From: a virus
DNA length: 64,000 bases
Direction: 5' to 3' (one strand)
IMG/VR virus record: IMGVR_UViG_3300022745_000018
Span: 1-64,000 of that record
Made by a program: the position numbers and the translations under genes
Notes under the pieces: model-generated
Told to the model about the DNA's origin: nothing
The model's database searches: none
What the model saw: only the letters and a program-made list of their open reading frames with translations
Part shown: positions 7,999-60,735 of the stretch, piece by piece
How positions within the stretch are numbered: the stretch's first letter is position 1
Layout: the number at the start of each line of letters is the position of its first letter

Positions 7999-8805
7999 TT
8001 AGACGGCAACAGGTGCTTTGATTGCTGGATGGTGTTGGTAATTGATAACCTCAAAGTCATCAAATGCATACTGGTTGATATTTTCTGGCTTCCGTTTGAT
8101 ATTCAATTGCGGAAACTTCAATGGCGTTCTAGCGAGCTGTTCCTTCGCTTGATTGACATGATTGCTGTAGAGGTGGACATCACCACCAGTCCAAATGAAT
8201 TCACCTACACTCAAATCGCATTGCTGAGCAATCATATGAGTCAACAATGAATAGCTTGCGATGTTGTAAGGAACACCCAGGAACACATCAGCACTACGCT
8301 GATACAACTGGCATGACAGTTTCCCGTCATTCACGTAAAACTGAAAAAACGCATGACAAGGCATGAGTGCCATCTTGTCCAGATCGGCCACGTTCCAAGC
8401 GCTCACAATGATGCGGCGGGAATCGGGGTTGGACTTGAGCGTTTGAATGACCTGTGAGATTTGGTCGATGTGGCCACCGTTCGGGGTGGGCCAACTGCGC
8501 CATTGAACACCATAGACAGGGCCGAGGTCACCATTCTCATCAGCCCATTCATCCCAGATGGTAACACCATTGTCTTTCAGGAACTTTGTGTTCGTTTCAC
8601 CACGCAGGAACCAAAGCAATTCGATGGCGATGGACTTGAAATGCAATTTCTTCGTGGTAATCAGCGGAAATCCTTCATTTAGATCAAAACGCATCTGATG
8701 GCCGAACTTTGAATATGTACCAGTACCAGTACGGTCAAGTTTGACCTTAGAAGTGGCTGCCAAGTCCACCAGACTCCGTAGCAGTTTTTCGTATTCAATG
8801 TTCAT
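7999..8805 (-). CDS. thyA: thymidylate synthase
   Basis: DRTGTGT, GPVYGx[29 protein letters not shown] motifs. Confidence 0.97.
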
Positions 8806-9341
8806 TCGGTTTCTTTCTTGAACTCAAAAGTCTTCTTGATGTCATCCCACGCTTTTGGGAAGAAGTTCATGTCAGTACAATCACAACTAACATTGAAGTA
8901 ACGGCGGTCACGATCACCATCTGCAAGCTTCACGTAATTTGAATGCAAATGACCGTGTACGCAACCTTTCCATCGTTCCAATTGGTTTTCATGAACTGGG
9001 ATGTGTGTCAGAACGAATCCGTCGTATTCACGAGAACCAAAGACTTTCGTGAAGTACTTTCCCATCAACTCAATCGAATAGAGATCGTGATTTCCAAGAA
9101 TCAGACTCTTGGTTCCGTTCAATCGAGCCACCTTATCAAGATGTTTCTTATTGATCACGACATCACCGAGAACAATGACTTTGTCGTTTGGACCAACAAC
9201 GGAATTCCAATTGGAAATGATGGTTTCATCCATCGTTTCAACATCTGGGAATGGTCGTAGCGGTTGACCGTCTTCTCTAACAAACTTCAGTGCATTTGTA
9301 TGACCGAAGTGTAGATCTGAAATCAGAAATGTAGTGCTCAT
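8802..9341 (-). CDS. calcineurin-like metallophosphoesterase
   Basis: SDLHFGH, LGD, GNHD, HGHLH motifs. Confidence 0.9.
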
Positions 9342-9547
9342 CAATTCACCATGAATGATTGGAACTGCGTACCCAGTAAGCCTGCGCAGATCAAAATAAG
9401 GATGACGAAGATGATGAGCGGCCAAGTGCGCATGAACTGCCCGTCGTGTGGACGGTAGTGTTCAATTGCATTTGCATAGTCGGGACGAAGCCAAGTCTCA
9501 CCAGCGCGGCGAGCAAAGCGGATGTTTTGGTAATCCATTGAATTCAT
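9341..9547 (-). CDS. small membrane protein
   Basis: C-terminal TM helix. Confidence 0.5.
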   Translation of the reverse strand: MNSMDYQNIRFARRAGETWLRPDYANAIEHYRPHDGQFMRTWPLIIFVILILICAGLLGTQFQSFMVN

Positions 9548-9558
9548 TTTGTGTTTCC

Positions 9559-9756
9559 TTAATGAGAACGTTTGACCGTGAGAGTTGTGTCTGTTTTGCT
9601 GATGATGTCAGATTCAGCAATCTCGTACTCGTCATCAACGAGGAGCCAAGTTTTGCCGTCTTCTTTGTATGCATAGACGACAGTACCATGAGGTTCAGAT
9701 GCATCATTATAGATGACTTTCTTACCATCATAGATATTCACATGTTCACAGATCAT
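9559..9756 (-). CDS. hypothetical protein
   Basis: AAGGA SD; downstream of promoter 9773-9812. Confidence 0.55.
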   Translation of the reverse strand: MICEHVNIYDGKKVIYNDASEPHGTVVYAYKEDGKTWLLVDDEYEIAESDIISKTDTTLTVKRSH

Positions 9757-9772
9757 TTTAGTTTCCTTTATG

Positions 9773-9812
9773 TGTCGATGGTGTTATCATAACACACCAT
9801 CGTTCATGTAGT
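9773..9812 (-). promoter_or_regulatory. ACTACATG-N13-TATGAT promoter with CATCGACA start region
   Basis: Motif copy with 13-bp spacer. Confidence 0.7.
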
Positions 9813-9822
9813 TATTATGCAC

Positions 9823-9852
9823 TAGAAACAACAATGGGGCATGAAGCCCCAT
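9823..9852 (-). terminator. intrinsic terminator
   Basis: ATGGGGC-ttcat-GCCCCAT hairpin followed by TGTTGTTT on the minus strand. Confidence 0.7.
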
Positions 9853-9872
9853 CTAATAACAAAGATCGGTTA

Positions 9873-10322
9873 TTACCGCTGCTTGACGACCAATTGTCGA
9901 TTATCAAGAATGACTGGTTTCTCAACAATCGCTTTCTTCTTGATTACTGCAGTAGCTGGGATTGCTAGAAGCATAATTAGAATGAAAGCAACCAACCATC
10001 GTTTGAGATTCCTAACTTGGTCGTCAGTAAGATCATCAAAAACGCATGTATGATCTTCAGGAATCTTCTCACGTTCACGAGTCGCTTCAGATGGCCAATA
10101 GTTTGACCATTTGATGTTCTCGATTGGAATCAGATCTTTAGTGACGGCTGCAATACCAACTTCCTCAAGACTTGCTGTGGATTGTACGGGTGCAGACCAG
10201 TGTTCACCGTTCCAGAATCTCCAGATATCAAGATTCTCGTCAACAGATGCATTCCACCAATCAATGAAAGGTGGTGGACCTGTTCTCCATATAGGTGGCT
10301 GTGGACCCCATAGAGGTGACAT
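9873..10322 (-). CDS. Trp/Pro-rich hypothetical protein with C-terminal TM helix
   Basis: ORF with AAGGAG SD. Confidence 0.6.
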   Translation of the reverse strand: MSPLWGPQPPIWRTGPPPFIDWWNASVDENLDIWRFWNGEHWSAPVQSTASLEEVGIAAVTKDLIPIENIKWSNYWPSEATREREKIPEDHTCVFDDLTDDQVRNLKRWLVAFILIMLLAIPATAVIKKKAIVEKPVILDNRQLVVKQR

Positions 10323-47710: not shown

Positions 47711-48121
47711 TTATTTTAGCTTAGCGAACAAGCCGATGTTATCTGCATGCGATGGAGCAGTCCATCCTTCTGGTTTGATCATATCAGGTAGACCCAAAGG
47801 ATTTGGCCTCGATGGTTTGATGCCAGGTTCTTTCTGCATGTTAGCAGTATGCACACGATCCCAAGCCAAATTAGGATTGACGTCAAATGCATTCATCGTA
47901 CCCAGAGACACCACATTGAGATCGGTTAGACCATCAACAACGCCATCAAAGTCACCCTCATTCCATGCATCCTCAATTTCTTGCATTTCTTCCTTCAGGA
48001 ATTTGAGACGAAATTCGAAGAATGTTCGTAGGGTTTCTTTATCGAAATCTTTGACTCGTTTGTTCACACCAAATTTGGTATGAAGATTCTCGATGTCATT
48101 GACCATATCACTATTACTCAT
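47711..48121 (-). CDS. all-alpha NTP pyrophosphohydrolase (MazG/HisE-like; candidate dCTPase)
   Basis: LKEE..E...D.L.DL, V..ANM.K, KPEGW..P motifs. Confidence 0.8.
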   Translation of the reverse strand: MSNSDMVNDIENLHTKFGVNKRVKDFDKETLRTFFEFRLKFLKEEMQEIEDAWNEGDFDGVVDGLTDLNVVSLGTMNAFDVNPNLAWDRVHTANMQKEPGIKPSRPNPLGLPDMIKPEGWTAPSHADNIGLFAKLK

Positions 48122-48307
48122 TCACTTTCCTTCTTTAAAATAATCACTCATCAACTCAAACACATCACCAAACCTACAATCAAAACAACGCTGTGGTTTT
48201 GATTGTTCGGTCCATGATTTGTATAACCAAGCCGGGACATCAATGGTGACCGAATAGACACTACCATCATCGTTGGCCCTAACATTCTTTACACCAATGC
48301 CATTCAT
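48122..48307 (-). CDS. hypothetical protein
   Basis: SD GAAGGA; downstream of promoter 48331-48359. Confidence 0.5.
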   Translation of the reverse strand: MNGIGVKNVRANDDGSVYSVTIDVPAWLYKSWTEQSKPQRCFDCRFGDVFELMSDYFKEGK

Positions 48308-48330
48308 AACAATTCCTTCACTTATAGTAA

Positions 48331-48359
48331 ATCATATCATCACGGAGGAGATATGTAAA
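48331..48359 (-). promoter_or_regulatory. sigma70-like promoter TTTACA-N17-TATGAT
   Basis: Recurring motif. Confidence 0.65.
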
Positions 48360-48363
48360 ATTT

Positions 48364-49593
48364 TCAAGCGATCTCGAAAATGTCATGTGCTTCGATTTTA
48401 GGCGAAGCTTTAACGAACTTCTGCGATTCGTTGTTCTGCCAGAAATCGCCGTGGCTAGAATCAACTAATTCACCATCAATGAACTTGATTGCTGCGTCGA
48501 TCATGTCTGCTGCGGTACAAACAGGTACGTTCTGACAGATCATATTGAAGTTCTTTACACCACCCAAGAGTTCGAAGTTCTTGGGCATAGCCATGATGTG
48601 CATAGCTTCTCGGATAGATAGACCGCGATCTTCGAATGGGTGAATTGTATCGCAGACATTTCTACCGACGAGAGCATTCATATGACCATCGAAAACGTGA
48701 ATGCTACCGTCCCAGATTCCTTTGTTCATGCCAAATTTCTTGATAGCGTGTGTCATGAATTTGACACCTTTCTCGTCGCTAACTTCTTCAAACCACTTTA
48801 GTGCAGTTGGCATCAATTCATGCATATGAATGTATTGAAATGCAGTACGCACATTTGCCTCAATGATCGCTTGGCGCCAGTCTGCAATACCCAAAGATTC
48901 GTTAATGAATCTTTTGCATGGTTCATTGATGATTGTTTGATTAACAATCAGATCCTGTTGAAGATCTGTAGGGGAGATCTCTTTCAAGTAATCTGTGAAA
49001 TGTAAATGGTCACGATTGTACCAAGGCAAGATTGGTGCGGTCGGATTCTTCCATGCAAAATAGAATGTACGATGCCGTGCCTGTGGGACACCATGATGAT
49101 TTGTTGATGTCTTGTAGAACGAAGAAGAGTACCCATACTCTTTAGCCGCTGCAATCAATCTAGCAGCGACACCTGCGCCTTTGTTCGTTGCAAGAGCTGG
49201 GGCATTCTCCATGATGAACACTTGACATTTGATTTTACCCAGGGCCTCTCTCAATGAATAGTCCATCCATCTAGTAGATGCAGCCATGGCACCGACAGAA
49301 GCAGATTCTTTCCCAGCTGTATTCAAACCACACAGCGCCGAACATGGCGGTGTTGCTACAACAATATCGGCATATTCGATTGGAGGACCTGAAACGACTT
49401 CACCAGATTCGTCCAGTTTCGTGTACTCAATACCATATGAATTTGTTACATTGGCCCAATTGAGATACTGTTCGTCATTCTTAAAACCATAACCAATGAT
49501 CTGCTTCGGAGGAGTCCCAATTCTACGCTCCGCACCCAAAGGGAATCCGCCGATCAAAGGGATAAGGGCCGTCCATGTTTTTGTTTTACTCAT
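48364..49593 (-). CDS. C5-cytosine DNA methyltransferase-like protein with atypical motif I
   Basis: TPPC (IV), MENAP (VI), PQ.R.R (VIII), R.LSIREA (IX), QNVP (X); motif I reads IPLIGG instead of FxGxG. Confidence 0.8.
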   Translation of the reverse strand: MSKTKTWTALIPLIGGFPLGAERRIGTPPKQIIGYGFKNDEQYLNWANVTNSYGIEYTKLDESGEVVSGPPIEYADIVVATPPCSALCGLNTAGKESASVGAMAASTRWMDYSLREALGKIKCQVFIMENAPALATNKGAGVAARLIAAAKEYGYSSSFYKTSTNHHGVPQARHRTFYFAWKNPTAPILPWYNRDHLHFTDYLKEISPTDLQQDLIVNQTIINEPCKRFINESLGIADWRQAIIEANVRTAFQYIHMHELMPTALKWFEEVSDEKGVKFMTHAIKKFGMNKGIWDGSIHVFDGHMNALVGRNVCDTIHPFEDRGLSIREAMHIMAMPKNFELLGGVKNFNMICQNVPVCTAADMIDAAIKFIDGELVDSSHGDFWQNNESQKFVKASPKIEAHDIFEIA

Positions 49594-49627
49594 CATTAAC
49601 CTATTCAAAGGAATTATTTATGGGCTA

Positions 49628-50869
49628 TTACTGAAAGAATTCGTCAATGGAATTAGACGATTCCTCGATAGAGTATTCTGATAGATCCGGTCTGATGTAA
49701 TTTTCGTCAAGAGCCTTCATGACAGTGTCATTGAGCGTTTCACCGGAATAGTCAGACGGTTTGCAGAAGATTTTCTGTAGGTGATCAATCATCCTAGAAT
49801 ATGAACCAGTTTCTTCAAGTTTTGTGATACCCTTGAAAAGATCTTCAGGCGTCTTTGGTAACAGGATGTCTGGGACAAGAGATCTGATCTCAGGGATATT
49901 TGTTGCATAGTTGGGATGGAAGAATGGAACAACACCTGCATGTATCATCTCAATGTACTTTGATGTAGCCCAGCCATTTGCGATTGAGATAATGAACGTG
50001 TACTTTACATTCAGCATCTTCTTCTGCACTTGTTCTAACTTCAATGCACCTTTGAATCTGGTATCAGCTTCGGCTTTAGGATGTTCCCATCTGCCATAGA
50101 TTTCAACATCATCGACCTTCTTCAGAATCCAATCATTCAGCATATCATATCTGCTAGGATCGCCTTCATTTAGAACGATAGCCATTTGCACACTTCTATC
50201 ACGAGATTTCTCTGGACCACCGCGACCATACAGGAAAACACGTTCAACACCAGAATAGGTCATGTTGATAGTATGACTATCACGAGTCTGATCTTCGTAT
50301 GATCGGATTGTCCGCTTCACATATGATCCATTGAACTGAGAGAGTGAACGAATTGGGTTAGGGATGATATCTCTTGACTGAGCCAATGTATAGCGAGGGT
50401 CATTGATGATTTCAATCGCTGGACATTTACTGTCGTTCCACCATTCAGAAATTGGTGTAGTATAACCCAATGTCATATCGATGATAGTCGTCATCTGACT
50501 CGGATCTTTGATCTGTTGGATTCTGTTGGGGATAGAGACGTTACCGACTTGGCCAACCATCCAGACACAATGGTCAATCTCTACGCTCAATTCAACCAAA
50601 CGATTCTTCACATAGTCGCGTTCAGATTTGATCTTTGACTTGGAATGGAGGTCAATGACATTATTGTAGGGAAATCTTGATAGACGTTCGTGTTCCGTCA
50701 TTTTGGAGAAATCAGAACGGCCAATCAGATAGAACTTCTTATCTGGGTTATGATTCGCCAAAAGTTGAATCATCGCTGGCCCTTCATTGTCACCACCGAT
50801 CGGACTGAACGGCGTAACAAACTTCAATGACTTACCAATCTTAGCAAAACCAATGTGCTTCATTATCAA
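49628..50869 (-). CDS. putative GT-B glycosyltransferase (DNA modification)
   Basis: N-terminal GGDNE loop, IYGRW and TSKYIEM..AGVVPFF C-terminal pattern; located in the hmC cluster. Confidence 0.6.
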   Translation of the reverse strand: MIMKHIGFAKIGKSLKFVTPFSPIGGDNEGPAMIQLLANHNPDKKFYLIGRSDFSKMTEHERLSRFPYNNVIDLHSKSKIKSERDYVKNRLVELSVEIDHCVWMVGQVGNVSIPNRIQQIKDPSQMTTIIDMTLGYTTPISEWWNDSKCPAIEIINDPRYTLAQSRDIIPNPIRSLSQFNGSYVKRTIRSYEDQTRDSHTINMTYSGVERVFLYGRGGPEKSRDRSVQMAIVLNEGDPSRYDMLNDWILKKVDDVEIYGRWEHPKAEADTRFKGALKLEQVQKKMLNVKYTFIISIANGWATSKYIEMIHAGVVPFFHPNYATNIPEIRSLVPDILLPKTPEDLFKGITKLEETGSYSRMIDHLQKIFCKPSDYSGETLNDTVMKALDENYIRPDLSEYSIEESSNSIDEFFQ

Positions 50870-51936
50870 AAACCTTTTCTATATTCACAAACCTTGGACC
50901 TTAGATCATCAACGATTTCCAATCGTCTTGATTCTGTCGTACCAAAGTCAAAATTCTTCAGATACAGTGAAGAAAGATTTATCCCGAAAGATTTCTCTAC
51001 ATTTTCGCAGATCACATCGTCATGCAATAGAGGCAAACAACCCGCATGGAGTGATTCGATTAGCCGGTAAATAGAGAATTGTGTTGCATCGTACGCTGGC
51101 ACAACCAGGGTGTATCTAGACCTCCCTATTAACTGTAGATACTGTTCTCTACCAATGAATGACGACGGTTCATCTGAAAACTTATCATGGAGAAACAGTT
51201 TCGCGTTCTTGAAATGTCTGGCGGCCTCTTTAGCCTTCTCAATCTGTTTAGAACGGACTTGAGTCAGAGCAGTCATCCCGAATGTAAAGTCAATGTCTTT
51301 CTTTGGAGCACCGAAGATGTTCTGATCTTGATACATCTCCAAGAAGTATTGCATCGAATCTAAACGCTCAAATGATCTACTCTCATCCGTATAACCATGA
51401 AACAGTTTGTAGTTGTCAATTGGGCGGTACTTCAGATTGATAGCGTTCAACGAAACTTCCTGAGGGTCGTAGATGACTTCGTACAATGGAATACCAAGTT
51501 CACGATTGGCTTTCAACATCGCTAAGACATGAAATATCGTGGAACCAACACTCAAGAAATTGATTTGGCCACGATCTTCAGGAAATTTCATTAGCCTCTT
51601 TGAACCATACTGCAAATATGATTTCTCGGATAGAATGCCACCGAAGATCACCAGTTTCTTGTATTTAGCCAATGGAGTCAAGTCAATTGAATTATATGCC
51701 TCAACCCAATCAGACATCTTGAACACTTTTGTGTGATAGAACTCATGATAGGGCATCACTACTTCATTGATCTGCAAACCAGAAACATCCATGATGTACT
51801 TTGAAACCTTTGTGGTTTTCTGATTAAGCATGATATCGCAAACGCCCAGTGTCTCTGACACCAAGAACTGCTGGATCAGACTCGTGACGAACTTACTAGT
51901 CAAGCCACGAGTTGAATACAAAAGGACATTACCCAT
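50866..51936 (-). CDS. putative GT-B glycosyltransferase (beta-glucosyltransferase-like)
   Basis: IDFTFG, SRYTLVVP.YD...FSIYR..ES...GCLP pattern; cluster context. Confidence 0.6.
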   Translation of the reverse strand: MGNVLLYSTRGLTSKFVTSLIQQFLVSETLGVCDIMLNQKTTKVSKYIMDVSGLQINEVVMPYHEFYHTKVFKMSDWVEAYNSIDLTPLAKYKKLVIFGGILSEKSYLQYGSKRLMKFPEDRGQINFLSVGSTIFHVLAMLKANRELGIPLYEVIYDPQEVSLNAINLKYRPIDNYKLFHGYTDESRSFERLDSMQYFLEMYQDQNIFGAPKKDIDFTFGMTALTQVRSKQIEKAKEAARHFKNAKLFLHDKFSDEPSSFIGREQYLQLIGRSRYTLVVPAYDATQFSIYRLIESLHAGCLPLLHDDVICENVEKSFGINLSSLYLKNFDFGTTESRRLEIVDDLRSKVCEYRKGF

Positions 51937-52017
51937 TGTATGAGTAACCTCTCATGTAGCGATGATATTCGCCGCCATAGACTACTGAATTGAATTCAAT
52001 GCTGAATGTATAAGAGA

Positions 52018-52500
52018 TCATGCTGTACCTTTCGTTTGTACTCGATTTGATTCTGCTGCGGCGACTCGTGATCTCAAATCTGTTGTTGAGAATGAGTGTC
52101 GCCGTTTATTGTAATGGATAGGGCATAGACCAATTCCTGTATGATCTGTGCCTTTGTATTCTTCACCAACGATTCTGATATCGGGTTGGAGTGTCAGAAT
52201 GATATCAACGATTTCTTGTTCCGTGGTGAATGGGATGACTTCGTCGACATACTTACAAGCGGCAATTTGAACATATCGTTCAAACGCAGACTGCACTGGT
52301 CTGTTCTTTGTCTCTTGTCTATCCAATGTGGGATCTATCAGAAGACCGACTACCAAGTAATCGCACAGCGTCTTTGCTTCTTGTAACATCACGACATGAC
52401 CTGCGTGAAACAGATCAAAGGTCGAGCATGTAAAACCTACACGAATGTCGTTGATATCTTTCCCAAGTTTCTTCGCTAGTTCAACCTTGTTGAAAAACAT
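52018..52500 (-). CDS. TagD-like cytidylyltransferase
   Basis: STFDLFHAGH (HxGH), YVDEVIP, R.HSFSTT motifs. Confidence 0.85.
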   Translation of the reverse strand: MFFNKVELAKKLGKDINDIRVGFTCSTFDLFHAGHVVMLQEAKTLCDYLVVGLLIDPTLDRQETKNRPVQSAFERYVQIAACKYVDEVIPFTTEQEIVDIILTLQPDIRIVGEEYKGTDHTGIGLCPIHYNKRRHSFSTTDLRSRVAAAESNRVQTKGTA

Positions 52501-53512
52501 TCTCAATGCACTTTCTAATATGTTCTTTATTTGGGTGATATTTGTAGACACGAGTGATCTCGGCACAAACCAAAACTATCATCGTTGAATGATATAGGTT
52601 ATTGAATGCAACCAATGACCGAAGAGATGTATCTATCATTTTCTGTGGGTATTCATTGATGTACAGAGAAGCAATGAACTTCGCTATATCCAATTCAGTG
52701 GAACCATAGACACTAGTGATAGGATCAATGAGATGCAGCTTCCCATCACCGAACAGCATATTAGTGATACCGAAATCACCATGAGCAAATGTTCTGACTG
52801 GTGGCTTGATCAATTCAAGCTTACTTGCATTATCAATTGCCGCTTGAACACCAGAATTCTTAGCATGGTCTTTGATTCTATCGATGTACGATGAGAAGGT
52901 CAGTCCACCGTCCATGAATGGAATCGCGGACATCTTTGCTAAAGCATCCTGAATCAACCCAAGAGCAATGAATGTATTGTTTCTGAAGAAGTCCACATCA
53001 TGATCAATGTATCTCATTGTGATTGTATCACCAACGATTCTATCTACACAAGGCACATTGAGCGAATAGCAGGCAGTCTTATACCATTCCTTGGTTTGAT
53101 GTGCATTCTTGTCTTGCTTATGGACCATAGCACCATCGGTATAGATATCCGAGCCAGATAGACCACCATGCAACTGACGAATGTCTTGCATAATGAATTC
53201 TTCTGGACTCATTCCTTTATCATCGATGTAGTATGCCGCTAAAGGTTTCTCGAATGAGATTGAATGATACTTGACACCGTGCTTCTCAAGCCAAGTCTTC
53301 ATGCCGCGTTCATACTTCAATCGAGCCTGAGCACGAGTCTGGCATGAAATCGAACCTCTAGCAGTAAAAATGTCGATTTGCCAACCATTATCAAACAGCC
53401 CATTTGTTTTCGTGATCAGTGATCTGTTTGGTACAGCATCATCCCAATTTCTACCTTCAGCGAACGCTAAGGTATCATCAAAGTCTAAAATGATTCGTTT
53501 GTGATAGTTCAT
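52481..53512 (-). CDS. HAD phosphatase fused to an APH/choline-kinase-like phosphotransferase
   Basis: LDFDDTL, FTARG, KP...YIDDK (HAD); HGDF...N.L and LIDP (kinase). Confidence 0.8.
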   Translation of the reverse strand: MNYHKRIILDFDDTLAFAEGRNWDDAVPNRSLITKTNGLFDNGWQIDIFTARGSISCQTRAQARLKYERGMKTWLEKHGVKYHSISFEKPLAAYYIDDKGMSPEEFIMQDIRQLHGGLSGSDIYTDGAMVHKQDKNAHQTKEWYKTACYSLNVPCVDRIVGDTITMRYIDHDVDFFRNNTFIALGLIQDALAKMSAIPFMDGGLTFSSYIDRIKDHAKNSGVQAAIDNASKLELIKPPVRTFAHGDFGITNMLFGDGKLHLIDPITSVYGSTELDIAKFIASLYINEYPQKMIDTSLRSLVAFNNLYHSTMIVLVCAEITRVYKYHPNKEHIRKCIENVFQQG

Positions 53513-54193
53513 TTACTTCGCCAAGTTAAAGTCACAGACTAAACCAAAATGACGCTCATATACATGTAAGCTCGCTGCATTCCAGATGATCTCACCGGGT
53601 TCGATACTCAAACTTTCGGCTAGCATCCTATGAATTTTGTTTTGCCATGCAAAATCACCTTTGTATCCGAAGACGGCGTCGTTCGATCGCATGTAGACCA
53701 AACTAACCAATTTCCCATCACGAATCATGTGTTGTGTTGAATACGTACACATGAAATCTGACATACCATCTTTGTCGAAGTCGAATTGCATCGACGGGCG
53801 ATTGTAAATCATACAAGCACGGCGAGAAGTCGGATCTCTCCGAAGAGTTTCTAAGCAACTCAAATACTGAAAACTGTTCTGGGCTGACCAAATACACCAC
53901 CCATAGTTTGAATTGATTCCACCATCCTCGGATGCAACCGATTTCCAGATCTGGGGAATGGGTGGTGGGATGTCATTAACATTTAGAGATAGAGATTTGT
54001 ACCATTCAAACTCACGACGGTTCCAATCCTCGTTCACTGCACCGAAAATAGTTGGCTCGTCTGCAACAAACGAAGCGCCAACAATCTCAATCGTTTTGAC
54101 ACCAGTCTTGTCTTCAACGAATTCCTTTTTCTCTAAGAGTTCGATTAACTGATTCCTGATTTCGAATGTGTGAGGTAAAGTTTTACTGATCAT
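53513..54193 (-). CDS. 42: dCMP hydroxymethylase (T4 gp42-like, thymidylate synthase fold)
   Basis: INSNYGW, SRRA.MIY.RPSM, DFMCT, MRSND.VFG...D.AW, SLHVYERHF. Confidence 0.88.
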   Translation of the reverse strand: MISKTLPHTFEIRNQLIELLEKKEFVEDKTGVKTIEIVGASFVADEPTIFGAVNEDWNRREFEWYKSLSLNVNDIPPPIPQIWKSVASEDGGINSNYGWCIWSAQNSFQYLSCLETLRRDPTSRRACMIYNRPSMQFDFDKDGMSDFMCTYSTQHMIRDGKLVSLVYMRSNDAVFGYKGDFAWQNKIHRMLAESLSIEPGEIIWNAASLHVYERHFGLVCDFNLAK

Positions 54194-54756
54194 AGTCCAA
54201 TGAATCCTTTGACTTGTGGTAGCAGATTCGCGAAACCAATCTGCGATACATTGTATTTAGCCTTTTTCTCAATTGTACTGAGATCGAACTGCTTTGTAAA
54301 ATTTTCAAGAGTCTCTGTCATCTGCTTCGGATCTGTTTCCAAACTCATACCATCATCACGAGCCATGATTGACTCAACCGAATCTGTTACGAGAATTAGA
54401 TAGACATCAGCGAGTCTGAAAATGTCTTTGTTGTAACCGCTGAAGATCTTTTCTTCAATCGAGGCTGATGTAACCGTGTTCGAATAGTTTCTATATCGCT
54501 GACCGTAAACAGGAACACCGATGTGGAATCTATCTGAAATGAAATTGAATGCAGCATCTTCATGAGCTAACGTTGTGTACGCGGTCACGATCGCTCCATA
54601 ATGGGAAATCTCCCATGCTAACGGATCATCGCATTTGGGTGGAGAACTGGAATGATTACAGAAAACATATGGCCCCAACTCATGGGCTAGATTTGCCGTC
54701 AGTGTGGATTTACCGCAGCGGTCTGGGCCCTCGATGATAACAAACTTCGGTTTCAT
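54190..54756 (-). CDS. thymidylate-kinase-like dNMP kinase
   Basis: IIEGPDRCGKST P-loop and DR motif. Confidence 0.8.
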   Translation of the reverse strand: MKPKFVIIEGPDRCGKSTLTANLAHELGPYVFCNHSSSPPKCDDPLAWEISHYGAIVTAYTTLAHEDAAFNFISDRFHIGVPVYGQRYRNYSNTVTSASIEEKIFSGYNKDIFRLADVYLILVTDSVESIMARDDGMSLETDPKQMTETLENFTKQFDLSTIEKKAKYNVSQIGFANLLPQVKGFIGL

Positions 54757-55337
54757 TTTTTAAGTACTTTCTGCATATACTGTGCTTGGTAAATTGCATC
54801 GTCTAAAGCATTGTGATGGACGCCATCACGAGGATGTTCAATCTTAAACAATTCCTTGAATGTCCTAAAGCAGCGGGAATGACTCCATTTCCATGGAGGG
54901 GAGTTTCCTTCAACGGCATCAAAAACATTCTCCAAGATCACGGTATCAGAATGACTACGCTTTGTTGAAGTAGAGTTTCCTTCAACAGTATCGAAAACGT
55001 TCTCTAGGATCACGATGTCGAAATCAACACCGCATGACCATGTTGGATATGATTTAGGGCCGTACCATTCTCTGAATTTAGTCAAGCCATCTTCGATCTG
55101 AACTCTATTGTTCTTGGTGGCCTCCCAAGCAGCTTGCTTCTGTTCTTTCCACCAATCAACCGTAGACTTTGAAATGTGGAGGCCATATTCCGTCGACTGT
55201 GAACGATAATCCAAATTGATGTAGAACTTATCTACAATCTCTGTATCGTTGAACTTGACGGCCCCAATCGAAATGATGGCTGCGGTCTTTTTGGAAGACA
55301 GTGTCTCCAAGTCAATCATTACATTTACATCACTCAC
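54753..55337 (-). CDS. DEDDh 3'-5' exonuclease (DexA-like)
   Basis: MIDLETL, FD..IL, HNALDDA..QA. Confidence 0.85.
   Translation of the reverse strand: MSDVNVMIDLETLSSKKTAAIISIGAVKFNDTEIVDKFYINLDYRSQSTEYGLHISKSTVDWWKEQKQAAWEATKNNRVQIEDGLTKFREWYGPKSYPTWSCGVDFDIVILENVFDTVEGNSTSTKRSHSDTVILENVFDAVEGNSPPWKWSHSRCFRTFKELFKIEHPRDGVHHNALDDAIYQAQYMQKVLKK
54876..55019 (-). repeat. in-frame 72-bp tandem duplication inside the exonuclease
   Basis: DIVILENVFDTVEGNSTSTKRSHS / DTVILENVFDAVEGNSPPWKWSHS. Confidence 0.85.
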
Positions 55338-55618
55338 GATTCATCCCTTGATTGTTCGCTACGAAGCGCACCGCGTTTTGCAGTGTGATTTTTACGGTCC
55401 TCTTTTACCATCTCTAAATACCGCAAGCAAGAATCTGCCGCTTCTTTAACATCTTTTTCTGTATCTTTTGCTCCACGGCCGCCAGCAACAAGCAATTTCT
55501 TAATTGCGTGAGCGATGCATGGATCTGTCACGTCATATAAACGTAAGATCCTATAGATATCCACATGGTCATAATGAGTGACATCCTTGAAATAATGACT
55601 ATGTTGTTTCTCAGTCAT
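55334..55618 (-). CDS. DUF3310-like small phage protein
   Basis: HY...DIY...HAIKKLL.AG.RG.KD...D..EA pattern. Confidence 0.6.
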   Translation of the reverse strand: MTEKQHSHYFKDVTHYDHVDIYRILRLYDVTDPCIAHAIKKLLVAGGRGAKDTEKDVKEAADSCLRYLEMVKEDRKNHTAKRGALRSEQSRDES

Positions 55619-55641: not shown

Positions 55642-55670
55642 ATCATATCAAACACCATCACTGATGTAAA
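55642..55670 (-). promoter_or_regulatory. leftward promoter TTTACA-N17-TATGAT for the modification cluster
   Basis: Recurring motif at the head of the operon. Confidence 0.7.
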
Positions 55671-59543: not shown

Positions 59544-60735
59544 AGAAACTGACGATTATCTAAGATTCATAGAAGAATGTATAGAACCAAACGAACATTG
59601 TGAAAAACATCACATATATCCAAAATCGATATTTGGTGACAATTCCTTCATAAAGAAGCTGTCATATAAAGATCACTTCTTTGCTCATTATTTGTTGGTT
59701 AAGCTATATGAAGCCGCTGGGATGAAATCTGAATACTTGAAGATGTCAAAAGCATTCTTTTCTTTCATTCGCTGCAATGAATATCGGTTATCTGAAATAT
59801 CATCGTATTCGGATGATGACATCACTGTGTTAGGGTGTCTATTTGAGGAAGCGAAAATTGAAAACTCTAAATCTTCAAACGGCGAAAACAATCCTTTTTA
59901 TGGTAAATCCCATTCGCCGGAAACTATTGAGAAAATACTGAATACAAAGAAGACACGTAATTCAATGAAATTTTGGACAAATGAGAAGAAAAAACGTCTA
60001 AGCGAAGTCCTCAAATCTCTACAAAATAAAAAGGTCATTTGGGTCACGAATGTTGAGACTAGAGAGAATCGTAGAGTATCTGAAAACGATCTTAACAACA
60101 TTTCAGATGAATGGGTTCTTGGTAGATATACATCAGATGAAGAGCGTCTGCACAGATCATACTCAGCCAAGGAATCCTCACATAATCTAACTTACGAATG
60201 GGTTCGCCGTGGAGATGAGCATGAATGGAGTGGCACCAAACACATAAAGTCGCTAGAGACTGGTGAAAATAGACGTCTAAAGATCAGTGATGAAATACCC
60301 AGTGGGTTTGTGTTAGGGCTCAATTTTTCGCAGTCTCATTTGGATAATCTTAGAATGGCGGCAAGTAAACGTAGAGGTAGACCACAACCTCACGTAATTG
60401 AGATCAATAAAAATCCATCCAAGATAAAGAAGACAGCTGATAAAAATCGCGGCACTACTCGCACAGAAAGTCAGAAATTAAAAATGAGTCTTGGGAGAAG
60501 AAAGTTTATCGCGAACGGGGGCAAAGCTTCGACTGCTGGTACGAAAAGATTGTTCAACAAATTATCTAAGAAGTTCGTATATGTACCTGCGAATGAAGTC
60601 TCCAATTCAATGAAAGAGAATTTGAATCTAACTGATGAAGCAGTAAGATTGGCGACGAACATGAATGGTGATAGATTGTATGTCTGTCAAACGGAAACAT
60701 TACCCAATGGATTTGAATATGTTCTTAGAAAATAA
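59512..60735 (+). mobile_element. free-standing HNH homing endonuclease (NUMOD3-type DNA-binding repeats) between the intein-1 halves
   Basis: EKHHIYPKS...H..AHYLL; GENNPFYGKSHS.ET; AT-rich; overlaps both flanking ORFs in another frame. Confidence 0.85.

Follow-up and report, generated by a model that had tools for sequence, protein, structure and literature searches.

The described systems closest to the gene cluster analysed here, which occupies positions 47711-55618 of a 64,000-nucleotide stretch of viral DNA (the window; the first 64 kb of IMG/VR record IMGVR_UViG_3300022745_000018), are phage pathways that place sugars on modified cytosines. T4 makes glucosyl-5-hydroxymethylcytosine (glucosyl-hmC) with a set of proteins that comprises the gp42 synthase, gp56, gp1 and an alpha- and a beta-glucosyltransferase; it carries a separate ThyA and a dCMP deaminase, and after replication transfers glucose from host UDP-glucose with GT-B glycosyltransferases (GTs), among them the DNA beta-glucosyltransferase (BGT); it has no donor-synthesis genes and no C5-methyltransferase-like gene. 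The Afh pathway of RB69, DLP3 and HY126 leads to arabinosyl-5-hydroxycytosine (Lee et al. NAR 2026, PMC13326640; He et al. Nat Chem Biol 2026; Mahler et al. Cell Host Microbe 2025), and thymidylate-synthase homologues of the RB69 type yield 5-hydroxy-dCMP, not 5-hydroxymethyl-dCMP (hmdCMP) (Lee et al. NAR 2026, PMC13326640).

The third system is contig 53, for which the formation of 5-HepmC (449 u) and 5-di-HepmC (641 u) from 5hmC in E. coli required three enzymes together, a bifunctional HAD+APH enzyme, a CTP_transf enzyme and a GT-B enzyme resembling the T4 beta-glucosyltransferase (Pyle et al. 2023, bioRxiv 10.1101/2023.12.21.572611). Its glycosyltransferase, GT53, has 429 aa and gave 3mbo (2.9e-7) and 1bgt (2e-6) as top Foldseek matches, and the annotation table of that study includes TIGR01689 and TIGR02199. 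The accompanying survey found GT-B pathways mostly with thymidylate-synthase homologues, and the neighbours of these pathways included APH, NTP-transferase and dCMP deaminase genes (10.1101/2023.12.21.572611).

The genome from which the window was taken is that of a T4-like freshwater phage (171,909 bp, approximately 99% complete). Eleven open reading frames (ORFs) run on its minus strand from 55618 down to 47711, joined by 4-nt overlaps or by gaps of at most approximately 80 nt. A first-pass annotation, made from the sequence alone, had named nine gene types in this run, and all nine were recovered in place and co-oriented using Pfam, PHROG and NCBIfam. In our assessment this operon probably encodes a T4-type cytosine-hypermodification pathway that has its own sugar-donor branch. 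The novelty implied by the first-pass annotation is reduced by contig 53, where the combination already has a precedent. What is new is the joining of a gp42-type hmC route to a contig 53-type set of donor enzymes and GT that is partly homologous to Afh, together with an extra GT and an invariant C5-cytosine-methyltransferase-like protein (MTL).

The pathway that we propose would begin with the removal of dCTP by a MazG-like enzyme and the formation of hmdCMP by a gp42-type enzyme. A Tmk-like kinase together with host kinases would carry hmdCMP to the triphosphate, from which the phage polymerase would build hmC DNA. On the donor side, a fusion enzyme would act on a host sugar phosphate, its APH-like half phosphorylating the anomeric carbon and its HAD half removing the distal phosphate, and a nucleotidyltransferase of the HldE/TagD class would turn the resulting sugar-1-phosphate into a nucleoside diphosphate (NDP) sugar. 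The core glycosyltransferase, GTb, would then put the sugar on the hydroxymethyl group of hmC in DNA, and a second enzyme, GTa, or repeated action of GTb would add a further sugar. Both the modified-base product and its role, which would be to shield the DNA from CRISPR and restriction nucleases, among them nucleases that target glucosyl-hmC, are what we infer from the gene set.

Compared with T4, the phage has a gp42-type synthase, a separate ThyA and dCMP deaminase, and GT-B enzymes resembling the T4 beta-glucosyltransferase for a predicted post-replicative transfer. It differs in having donor-synthesis genes and the MTL gene, in a dCTPase candidate that is MazG-like and unlike gp56, and in GTs without detectable sequence similarity to the T4 alpha- or beta-glucosyltransferase. 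With contig 53 it shares the HAD+APH fusion, the adjoining CTP_transf-type nucleotidyltransferase, a GT-B protein of approximately 410-430 aa whose structural neighbours are T4 BGT and BshA, matches of the fusion and the nucleotidyltransferase to TIGR01689 and TIGR02199, a nearby C5-methyltransferase gene and an aquatic origin, contig 53 being from an aquatic metavirome. The two differ in that contig 53 has a C5-methyltransferase/5mYOX context whereas the window has a predicted pre-replicative gp42-type route to hmC in a T4-like genome, and in that the window has GTa as an extra GT and a GTb on another branch than that of most loci with the same donor genes.

For the comparison with related loci, IMG/VR was scanned with a GTb profile, which gave 156 confirmed stretches; 80 of these loci were compared along with other loci, and their ORFs were labelled with phmmer. 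The set of GTb loci used below numbers 84 with the window included.

Base precursor

The gene for the predicted T4 gp42-type dCMP hydroxymethylase (53513-54193, minus strand) encodes a protein of the thymidylate-synthase fold that is 58% identical to a Tequatrovirus gp42. It was aligned to E. coli ThyA, to a Tequatrovirus gp42 and to RB69 gp48, and residues are given in ThyA numbering. In the alignment columns Cys146 is present, Asp169 is retained, and the substitutions L143D and N177D are found. The residues at all 13 positions within 6 Å of C5 are the same in the window protein and in gp42 (WYSDCTMRSNDGD), while the same positions read AFLECTMRSQNVD in RB69 gp48, to which the window protein is only approximately 27% identical. 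Asn at ThyA position 169 (D169N) has been proposed as the diagnostic residue of 5-hydroxy-dCMP synthases (PMC13326640). The window protein lacks it, reading RSND where RB69 gp48 reads RSQN, and a 5-hydroxycytosine base of the RB69 type was rejected on the strength of the retained Asp169. Because of this residue, the L143D and N177D substitutions, the gp42-identical surroundings of C5 and the far higher identity to gp42 than to gp48, the precursor is predicted to be hmdCMP. The same gp42 signature, Cys146, L143D, Asp169 and N177D, upholds the hmC-type base of the first-pass annotation.

Related loci agreed with this assignment, all 50 scorable thymidylate-synthase homologues in GTb loci being of the gp42 type. 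Asp or Asn at ThyA position 169 offers a cheap rule for sorting hmC-based from 5-hydroxycytosine-based clusters. A canonical thymidylate synthase, ThyA, is encoded outside the cluster at 7999-8805; it shares 69% identity with the E. coli enzyme and retains Leu143, Asp169 and Asn177, with the active-site string WYALCHQRSADGN. The existence of this separate, normal thyA had been recognised before, and only its strand had to be corrected, to minus. A dCMP deaminase gene lies at approximately 96.7 kb of the genome.

The Tmk-like nucleotide kinase (54190-54756, minus strand; phrog_761, 2e-14; TIGR00041, 5.8e-6; YorR 2axp/3kb2 in the Protein Data Bank (PDB), 1.3e-3) is the candidate hmdCMP kinase. 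PDB entry 3kb2 is likewise the neighbour given for DLP3 gp78, which is the arabinosylation cluster's 'nucleotide kinase' (NAR 2026, PMC13326640), and by analogy hmdCMP would be the substrate of the window enzyme. The candidate dCTPase is a MazG/PRA-PH-like NTP pyrophosphohydrolase (47711-48121, minus strand; PF01503, 7.5e-9; phrog_671, 1e-23). Its gene is the sole one of this kind in the genome, and in 26 related loci the gene for a homologue lies upstream of that for the thymidylate-synthase homologue. No homologue of T4 gp56 was found in the genome, and the MazG-like protein gave a BLASTP E-value of 1.2 against gp56. A weak Tequatrovirus match of this protein landed on an unrelated small ORF and was discarded.

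Sugar-donor branch and glycosyltransferases

The fusion gene (52481-53512, minus strand; 343 aa) combines an N-terminal HAD phosphatase (residues 5-115) with a C-terminal APH-like anomeric sugar kinase (residues 120-330). The HAD half matches PDB entries 1xpj (1.7e-8) and 9iqw (2e-8) and TIGR01689 (1.5e-10) and falls in the 1xpj/9iqw/EcbF-BcbF group of small HAD phosphatases. RB69 gp51, the AfhF analogue, belongs to the same group; it is 30% identical to the window's HAD half (E 7e-10), and its own top structural match is 1xpj (NAR 2026, PMC13326640). The kinase half matches APH (9e-4) and MtnK (2olc, 0.016), its weak neighbours being methylthioribose kinases, and a profile of 32 homologues aligned with the kinase half of AfhE-like proteins at an hhalign probability of 95% (E 2.4e-8). 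The DxDxT, K, DD, HGDxxxxN and IDP motifs of the fusion are intact and do not vary in 32 homologues.

Next to the fusion gene is that of a predicted sugar-1-phosphate nucleotidyltransferase of the HldE-domain-II/TagD/ECT class (52018-52500, minus strand; 160 aa; PF01467, 2.5e-15). The top NCBIfam match is TIGR02199 rfaE_dom_II, the heptose-1-phosphate adenylyltransferase family (4.7e-22), followed by TagD, and the best PDB match is the ethanolamine-phosphate cytidylyltransferase ECT (3elb, 3e-22), with TagD at 4e-14 (1coz). Its HxGH motif occurs as FHAGH, and a ..STT.. motif is present. Translation starts at an ATG at 52500 rather than at the GTG at 52566, so that the first 20 nt of the gene lie within the 3' end of the fusion gene. 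A programmed frameshift between the two genes was considered and rejected: an in-frame ATG (MF[FLI]xK) lies approximately 20 nt before the upstream stop in three of three homologues, which argues for ordinary translational coupling.

By analogy, kinase, phosphatase and nucleotidyltransferase fit the route sugar-omega-P to sugar-1,omega-bisP to sugar-1-P to NDP-sugar, a logic common to the ADP-heptose and Afh pathways. The order of kinase, HAD phosphatase and PF01467 nucleotidyltransferase is that of bacterial ADP-heptose synthesis (GmhA, HldE, GmhB), with the differences that the window kinase is APH-like rather than ribokinase-like, that the HAD domain groups with EcbF/AfhF and not with GmhB proper, and that there is no GmhA. 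Likeness to the Afh clusters extends over a thymidylate-synthase homologue with a Tmk-like kinase, an AfhF-like HAD, an APH-like anomeric kinase and a nucleotidyltransferase with one to three GT-B DNA glycosyltransferases, all in one cluster of a T4-like phage, and over the three-step conversion of a sugar-omega-P to an NDP-sugar. The differences concern the acceptor, which is 5-hydroxycytosine (D169N) in Afh and predicted to be hmC (Asp169) in the window; the kinase, which is fused to the nucleotidyltransferase in AfhE and to the phosphatase in the window; the nucleotidyltransferase, which has the NTP_transferase fold in Afh and the unrelated PF01467 fold in the window; and the remaining genes, the window having MTL but neither an arabinose-5-phosphate isomerase nor a U32-like gene.

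The two GTs of the operon are GTb (49628-50863, minus strand; 411 aa) and GTa (50866-51936, minus strand; 356 aa). Family models matched neither of them more than weakly. PDB sequence searches with the GTa and GTb profiles, as with MTL, returned no match, and fold prediction was therefore needed. AlphaFold models were built from 34 (GTb) and 50 (GTa) homologues and reached pLDDT values of 88 and 95, respectively. The best PDB matches of the GTa model were T4 BGT structures (1qkj, 2e-6; 1nzd; 1bgu), and those of the GTb model were T4 BGT (1nzd, 2.6e-7; 1c3j, with a TM-score of 0.69) and BshA (3mbo, 4e-7). On these models we confidently assign both proteins to the GT-B fold, with the T4 DNA beta-glucosyltransferase as the best structural match. 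This structure search bears out the two GT-B-like proteins that had been proposed earlier. The proposal of a phage-made NDP-sugar placed on hmC also gains support, from the contig 53 architecture of the kinase, phosphatase and nucleotidyltransferase trio and from the BGT-like GTs.

GTa is the less constant of the two: of the 83 related GTb loci, just 5 have it. One metagenomic relative, P0269 (814 aa), is a natural fusion of a TET-associated glycosyltransferase (TAGT) domain (PF20691, 1.5e-38) with a GTa-type GT-B domain and is presumably a two-transferase enzyme that adds consecutive sugars to a DNA base. Vibrio phages of approximately 191-195 kb have a GTa homologue (27% identity), for example phiKT1024 at 8995-10128 of its locus (L008), and phiTY18 encodes a 51%-identical PF01467 nucleotidyltransferase at 59764-60162, far from its GTa homologue. 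Such Vibrio phages may glycosylate their DNA with a phage-made donor. Homologues of GTb (29% identity over 85% of the length) were found in the Enterococcus siphophages 9183, TJE4 and Planchet (H22-H25; 86 kb), so the GTb family reaches phages of Gram-positive hosts.

Donor cassettes and identity of the sugar

Donor genes in the 84 GTb loci were of two types. Type A, the HAD-kinase fusion with the PF01467 nucleotidyltransferase as in the window, was found in 51 loci. Type B, an AfhE-like protein of approximately 500 aa that joins an NTP_transferase domain to a kinase, accompanied by a separate HAD, was found in 29, including Pseudoalteromonas phage vB_Psh_XG4. The two types never occurred together, and four contigs were too short to tell. 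In the GTb phylogeny, obtained with a quick IQ-TREE run, 30 type-A sequences formed one clade. The fusion and the nucleotidyltransferase of the window are closest to those of two loci (L005 and L006) where a weakly AGT-like protein of approximately 470 aa serves as the GT. The cluster is a mosaic in which two donor cassettes have been exchanged beside one GT lineage. The module recurs widely among aquatic T4-like phages, with the two cassettes interchangeable. The cultured phage vB_Psh_XG4, whose related module comprises a gp42-type thymidylate-synthase homologue, a HAD, an AfhE-like enzyme, GTb, GTa and MTL, is one in which the native base can be measured. Many type-B loci also have an ORF of approximately 220 aa between the dCMP deaminase gene and the AfhE-like gene (L010 6522-7187, L042 7519-8187); it is absent from the window, and its sole family hint was a weak match to an Eco57I methylase (E 0.006).

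By the precedent of contig 53, we put the chance that the transferred sugar is a heptose at about even. Should this be right, the window would tie heptosyl-5hmC chemistry, so far derived from metagenomic genes reassembled in E. coli, to a complete T4-like genome and a pre-replicative gp42-type route. The mosaic and the exchanged donor cassettes make the sugar less certain than that precedent suggests. E. coli makes ADP-heptose, and the contig 53 enzymes were still needed there, which suggests a donor other than host ADP-heptose.

Several points weigh against the pathway as drawn. The window GTb was placed among type-B lineages that have GTa (SH-aLRT 93-96, long branches), and the sugar could differ because it groups with GTs beside AfhE-like donor genes. 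The assignment of the window to the contig 53 type is based on architecture and family matches rather than on measured identity. The contig 53 test itself relied on E. coli metabolites and on 5hmC supplied by a heterologous MT14+TET43 pair (10.1101/2023.12.21.572611). At the precursor end, the dCTPase and hmdCMP kinase functions are assigned by analogy, with no similarity to gp56. Finally, a sugar-phosphate isomerase of the GmhA or KdsD type was not found in the genome; searches for SIS and SIS_2 isomerases (PF01380, PF13580) were negative over the full 172 kb, with positive controls in 14 of 14 and 11 of 14 genomes. Lacking a phage isomerase, the pathway would depend on the host for its sugar precursor.

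There is a low but appreciable chance that the sugar is instead D-arabinose or another pentose, drawn from host arabinose-5-phosphate or ribose-5-phosphate, in which case pentosyl-hmC (389 u) would be formed, an hmC-based equivalent of the arabinosyl-5-hydroxycytosine known from RB69, DLP3 and HY126. The donor enzymes give this some substance: the HAD half matches RB69 gp51, 1xpj (the top structural match of gp51 as well) and 9iqw, the kinase half is remotely homologous to that of AfhE-like proteins, and the methylthioribose kinases among its weak neighbours phosphorylate C1 of a pentofuranose. The window GTb, GTa and MTL are, moreover, closest to loci with AfhE-like enzymes, the cultured XG4 among them. 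The nucleotidyltransferase, however, is of the HldE/TagD class and not of the MurU-like class of AfhE, and the one tested cluster of exactly the window's architecture, contig 53, gave heptose. RB69 and DLP3 clusters include an arabinose-5-phosphate isomerase, whereas none is encoded in the window's genome, and no homologue of the RB69 enzyme (gp55) was found in any related locus within 10 kb of the cluster.

A CDP-polyol or CDP-amino-alcohol donor (CDP-glycerol, CDP-ribitol or CDP-ethanolamine), from which the GT-B proteins would move a phospho-alcohol onto hmC, had been offered earlier as an alternative to the NDP-sugar and now appears very improbable. Choline and ethanolamine kinases belong to the APH family, and among individual PDB sequences the nucleotidyltransferase is matched best by cytidylyltransferases for ethanolamine phosphate and glycerol-3-phosphate. 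Against this, its top NCBIfam match is a heptose-1-phosphate adenylyltransferase, and the phosphatase fused to the kinase, which fits a sugar route and belongs to the AfhF/capsule-phosphatase group, has no role in a polyol-phosphate route. For each GT the 50 best PDB matches included no TagF-type transferase, and neither GT gave a match to the Pfam Glyphos_transf/TagF family; the contig 53 products, too, are sugars.

It is also highly unlikely that the sugar-nucleotide genes and GTs alter host lipopolysaccharide (LPS) or capsule against superinfection and have nothing to do with DNA: GT-B folds are common in LPS synthesis, and a pelagimyophage survey (2020) labelled rfaE-like and glycosyltransferase genes LPS-related, but here the genes lie in one operon between the predicted hmdCMP synthase and a DNA-methylase-like gene, within a replication module, T4 BGT, an enzyme that modifies DNA, tops the structural matches of both GTs, one relative of GTa carries a fused TET-associated DNA glycosyltransferase domain, and the homologous triad of contig 53 modified DNA in E. 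coli. For group C pelagimyophages that survey reports a pair of thymidylate synthases along with a dCMP deaminase and with rfaE-like genes that were read as LPS-related (PMC7029224), and these genes may be the same DNA-modification module. More broadly, rfaE and glycosyltransferase genes that are labelled 'LPS-related' in aquatic myophages may in some cases serve to modify DNA.

The C5-methyltransferase-like protein and neighbouring genes

Within the proposed hypermodification pathway the least conventional member is MTL (48364-49593, minus strand; 409 aa), which matches PF00145 at 9e-17 with 61.9 bits (cut-off 22). Its family comprises 172 metagenomic matches, all of approximately 400 aa. In 30 members the motifs PPC (with an invariant Cys), ENA, PQxRxR and RE..GFP are invariant or nearly so, and the recognition region also holds invariant residues. 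Motif I does not carry the S-adenosylmethionine-binding signature, reading IPLIGG in place of FxGxGG with the first Gly replaced by Leu, and in an hhalign alignment the acidic residue of Dcm motif II (the E of SEW) stands opposite a gap. Matches of the MTL profile to most solved methyltransferases span only residues 66-200 and 311-370 and omit residues 1-65.

MTL adjoins GTb in all 84 GTb loci, directly in 81 and with GTa between them in three, and it is kept in L005 and L006, where the AGT-like protein replaces GTb. In L010, MTL was called as two pieces of 85 and 300 aa. If dCTP is removed and hmC takes the place of all cytosine, few sites would be left for a normal C5 methylase to act on. 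A search of the genome for a TET/JBP (Tet_JBP) gene detected none, although the controls for it were weak.

A homologue of MTL with 31% identity and the motif I variant IIPLVGG is present in cyanophage S-TIM5 (L011, NC_019516.2; 5757-6593, 8977-10194). The thymidylate-synthase homologue of this phage, 2.4 kb from the MTL homologue on the opposite strand, has N177D and L143C and the string WYHCCHARSNDGD, which suggests a dCMP-modifying enzyme, and no glycosyltransferase was found nearby. The cytosines of S-TIM5 DNA may be modified.

One speculative reading, to which we give little probability, is that MTL is not a methylase but a re-purposed, base-flipping and Cys-dependent enzyme that acts on hmC or glycosyl-hmC as an obligate partner of glycosylation and alters the final base. 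It draws on the adjacency to GTb in every locus across two donor modules, the retention in L005 and L006, the S-TIM5 homologue in a phage with a cytosine-type thymidylate-synthase homologue, the combination of intact catalytic motifs with an altered motif I, and the scarcity of unmodified cytosine expected in a genome fully substituted by hmC. Such an enzyme could possibly work through an exocyclic-methylene intermediate to exchange or elaborate the C5 substituent; alternatively, MTL might choose which hmC sites receive the sugar. As an invariant component, MTL is where new chemistry might hide. Several clades of phage C5-methyltransferases are inactive in E. coli (Burke et al. 2021); we were unable to connect those clades with the MTL family.

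The operon lies among the replication genes gp43, gp45 and gp44, with gp45 and then gp44 downstream of it. A DEDD 3'-5' exonuclease of the Rv2179c-like/DexA type is encoded at 54753-55337 (minus strand; PF16473, 1.5e-39; phrog_255, 1e-47). A homologue lies directly downstream of MTL in 33 related loci, and the enzyme may owe its place to shared gene order rather than to a role in the pathway. No family match was obtained for a 61-aa ORF at 48122-48307 (minus strand), and a conserved ORF of approximately 165 aa in related loci gave no informative family. GIY-YIG/NUMOD3 homing-endonuclease genes are inserted in related clusters (L010 11403-12176, L013 5918-6658).

No convincing terminator was found inside the operon (47711-55618). 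A consensus scan placed a promoter-like site (TTTACA-17-TATGAT with TG) at 55642-55670 on the minus strand, just 5' of the first ORF of the operon; such sites are no commoner in the region than in shuffled sequence, and it is position alone that supports this one. That first ORF, of 94 aa (55334-55618, minus strand), has, like the 61-aa ORF, no counterpart in related loci. It drew blanks in Pfam and NCBIfam and a partial match to PHROG 2452/13223, aligning only to the C-terminal 80 or so positions of these profiles, whose lengths are 235-243 aa. The ORF may be what is left of a longer phage protein, or a free-standing C-terminal domain of one.

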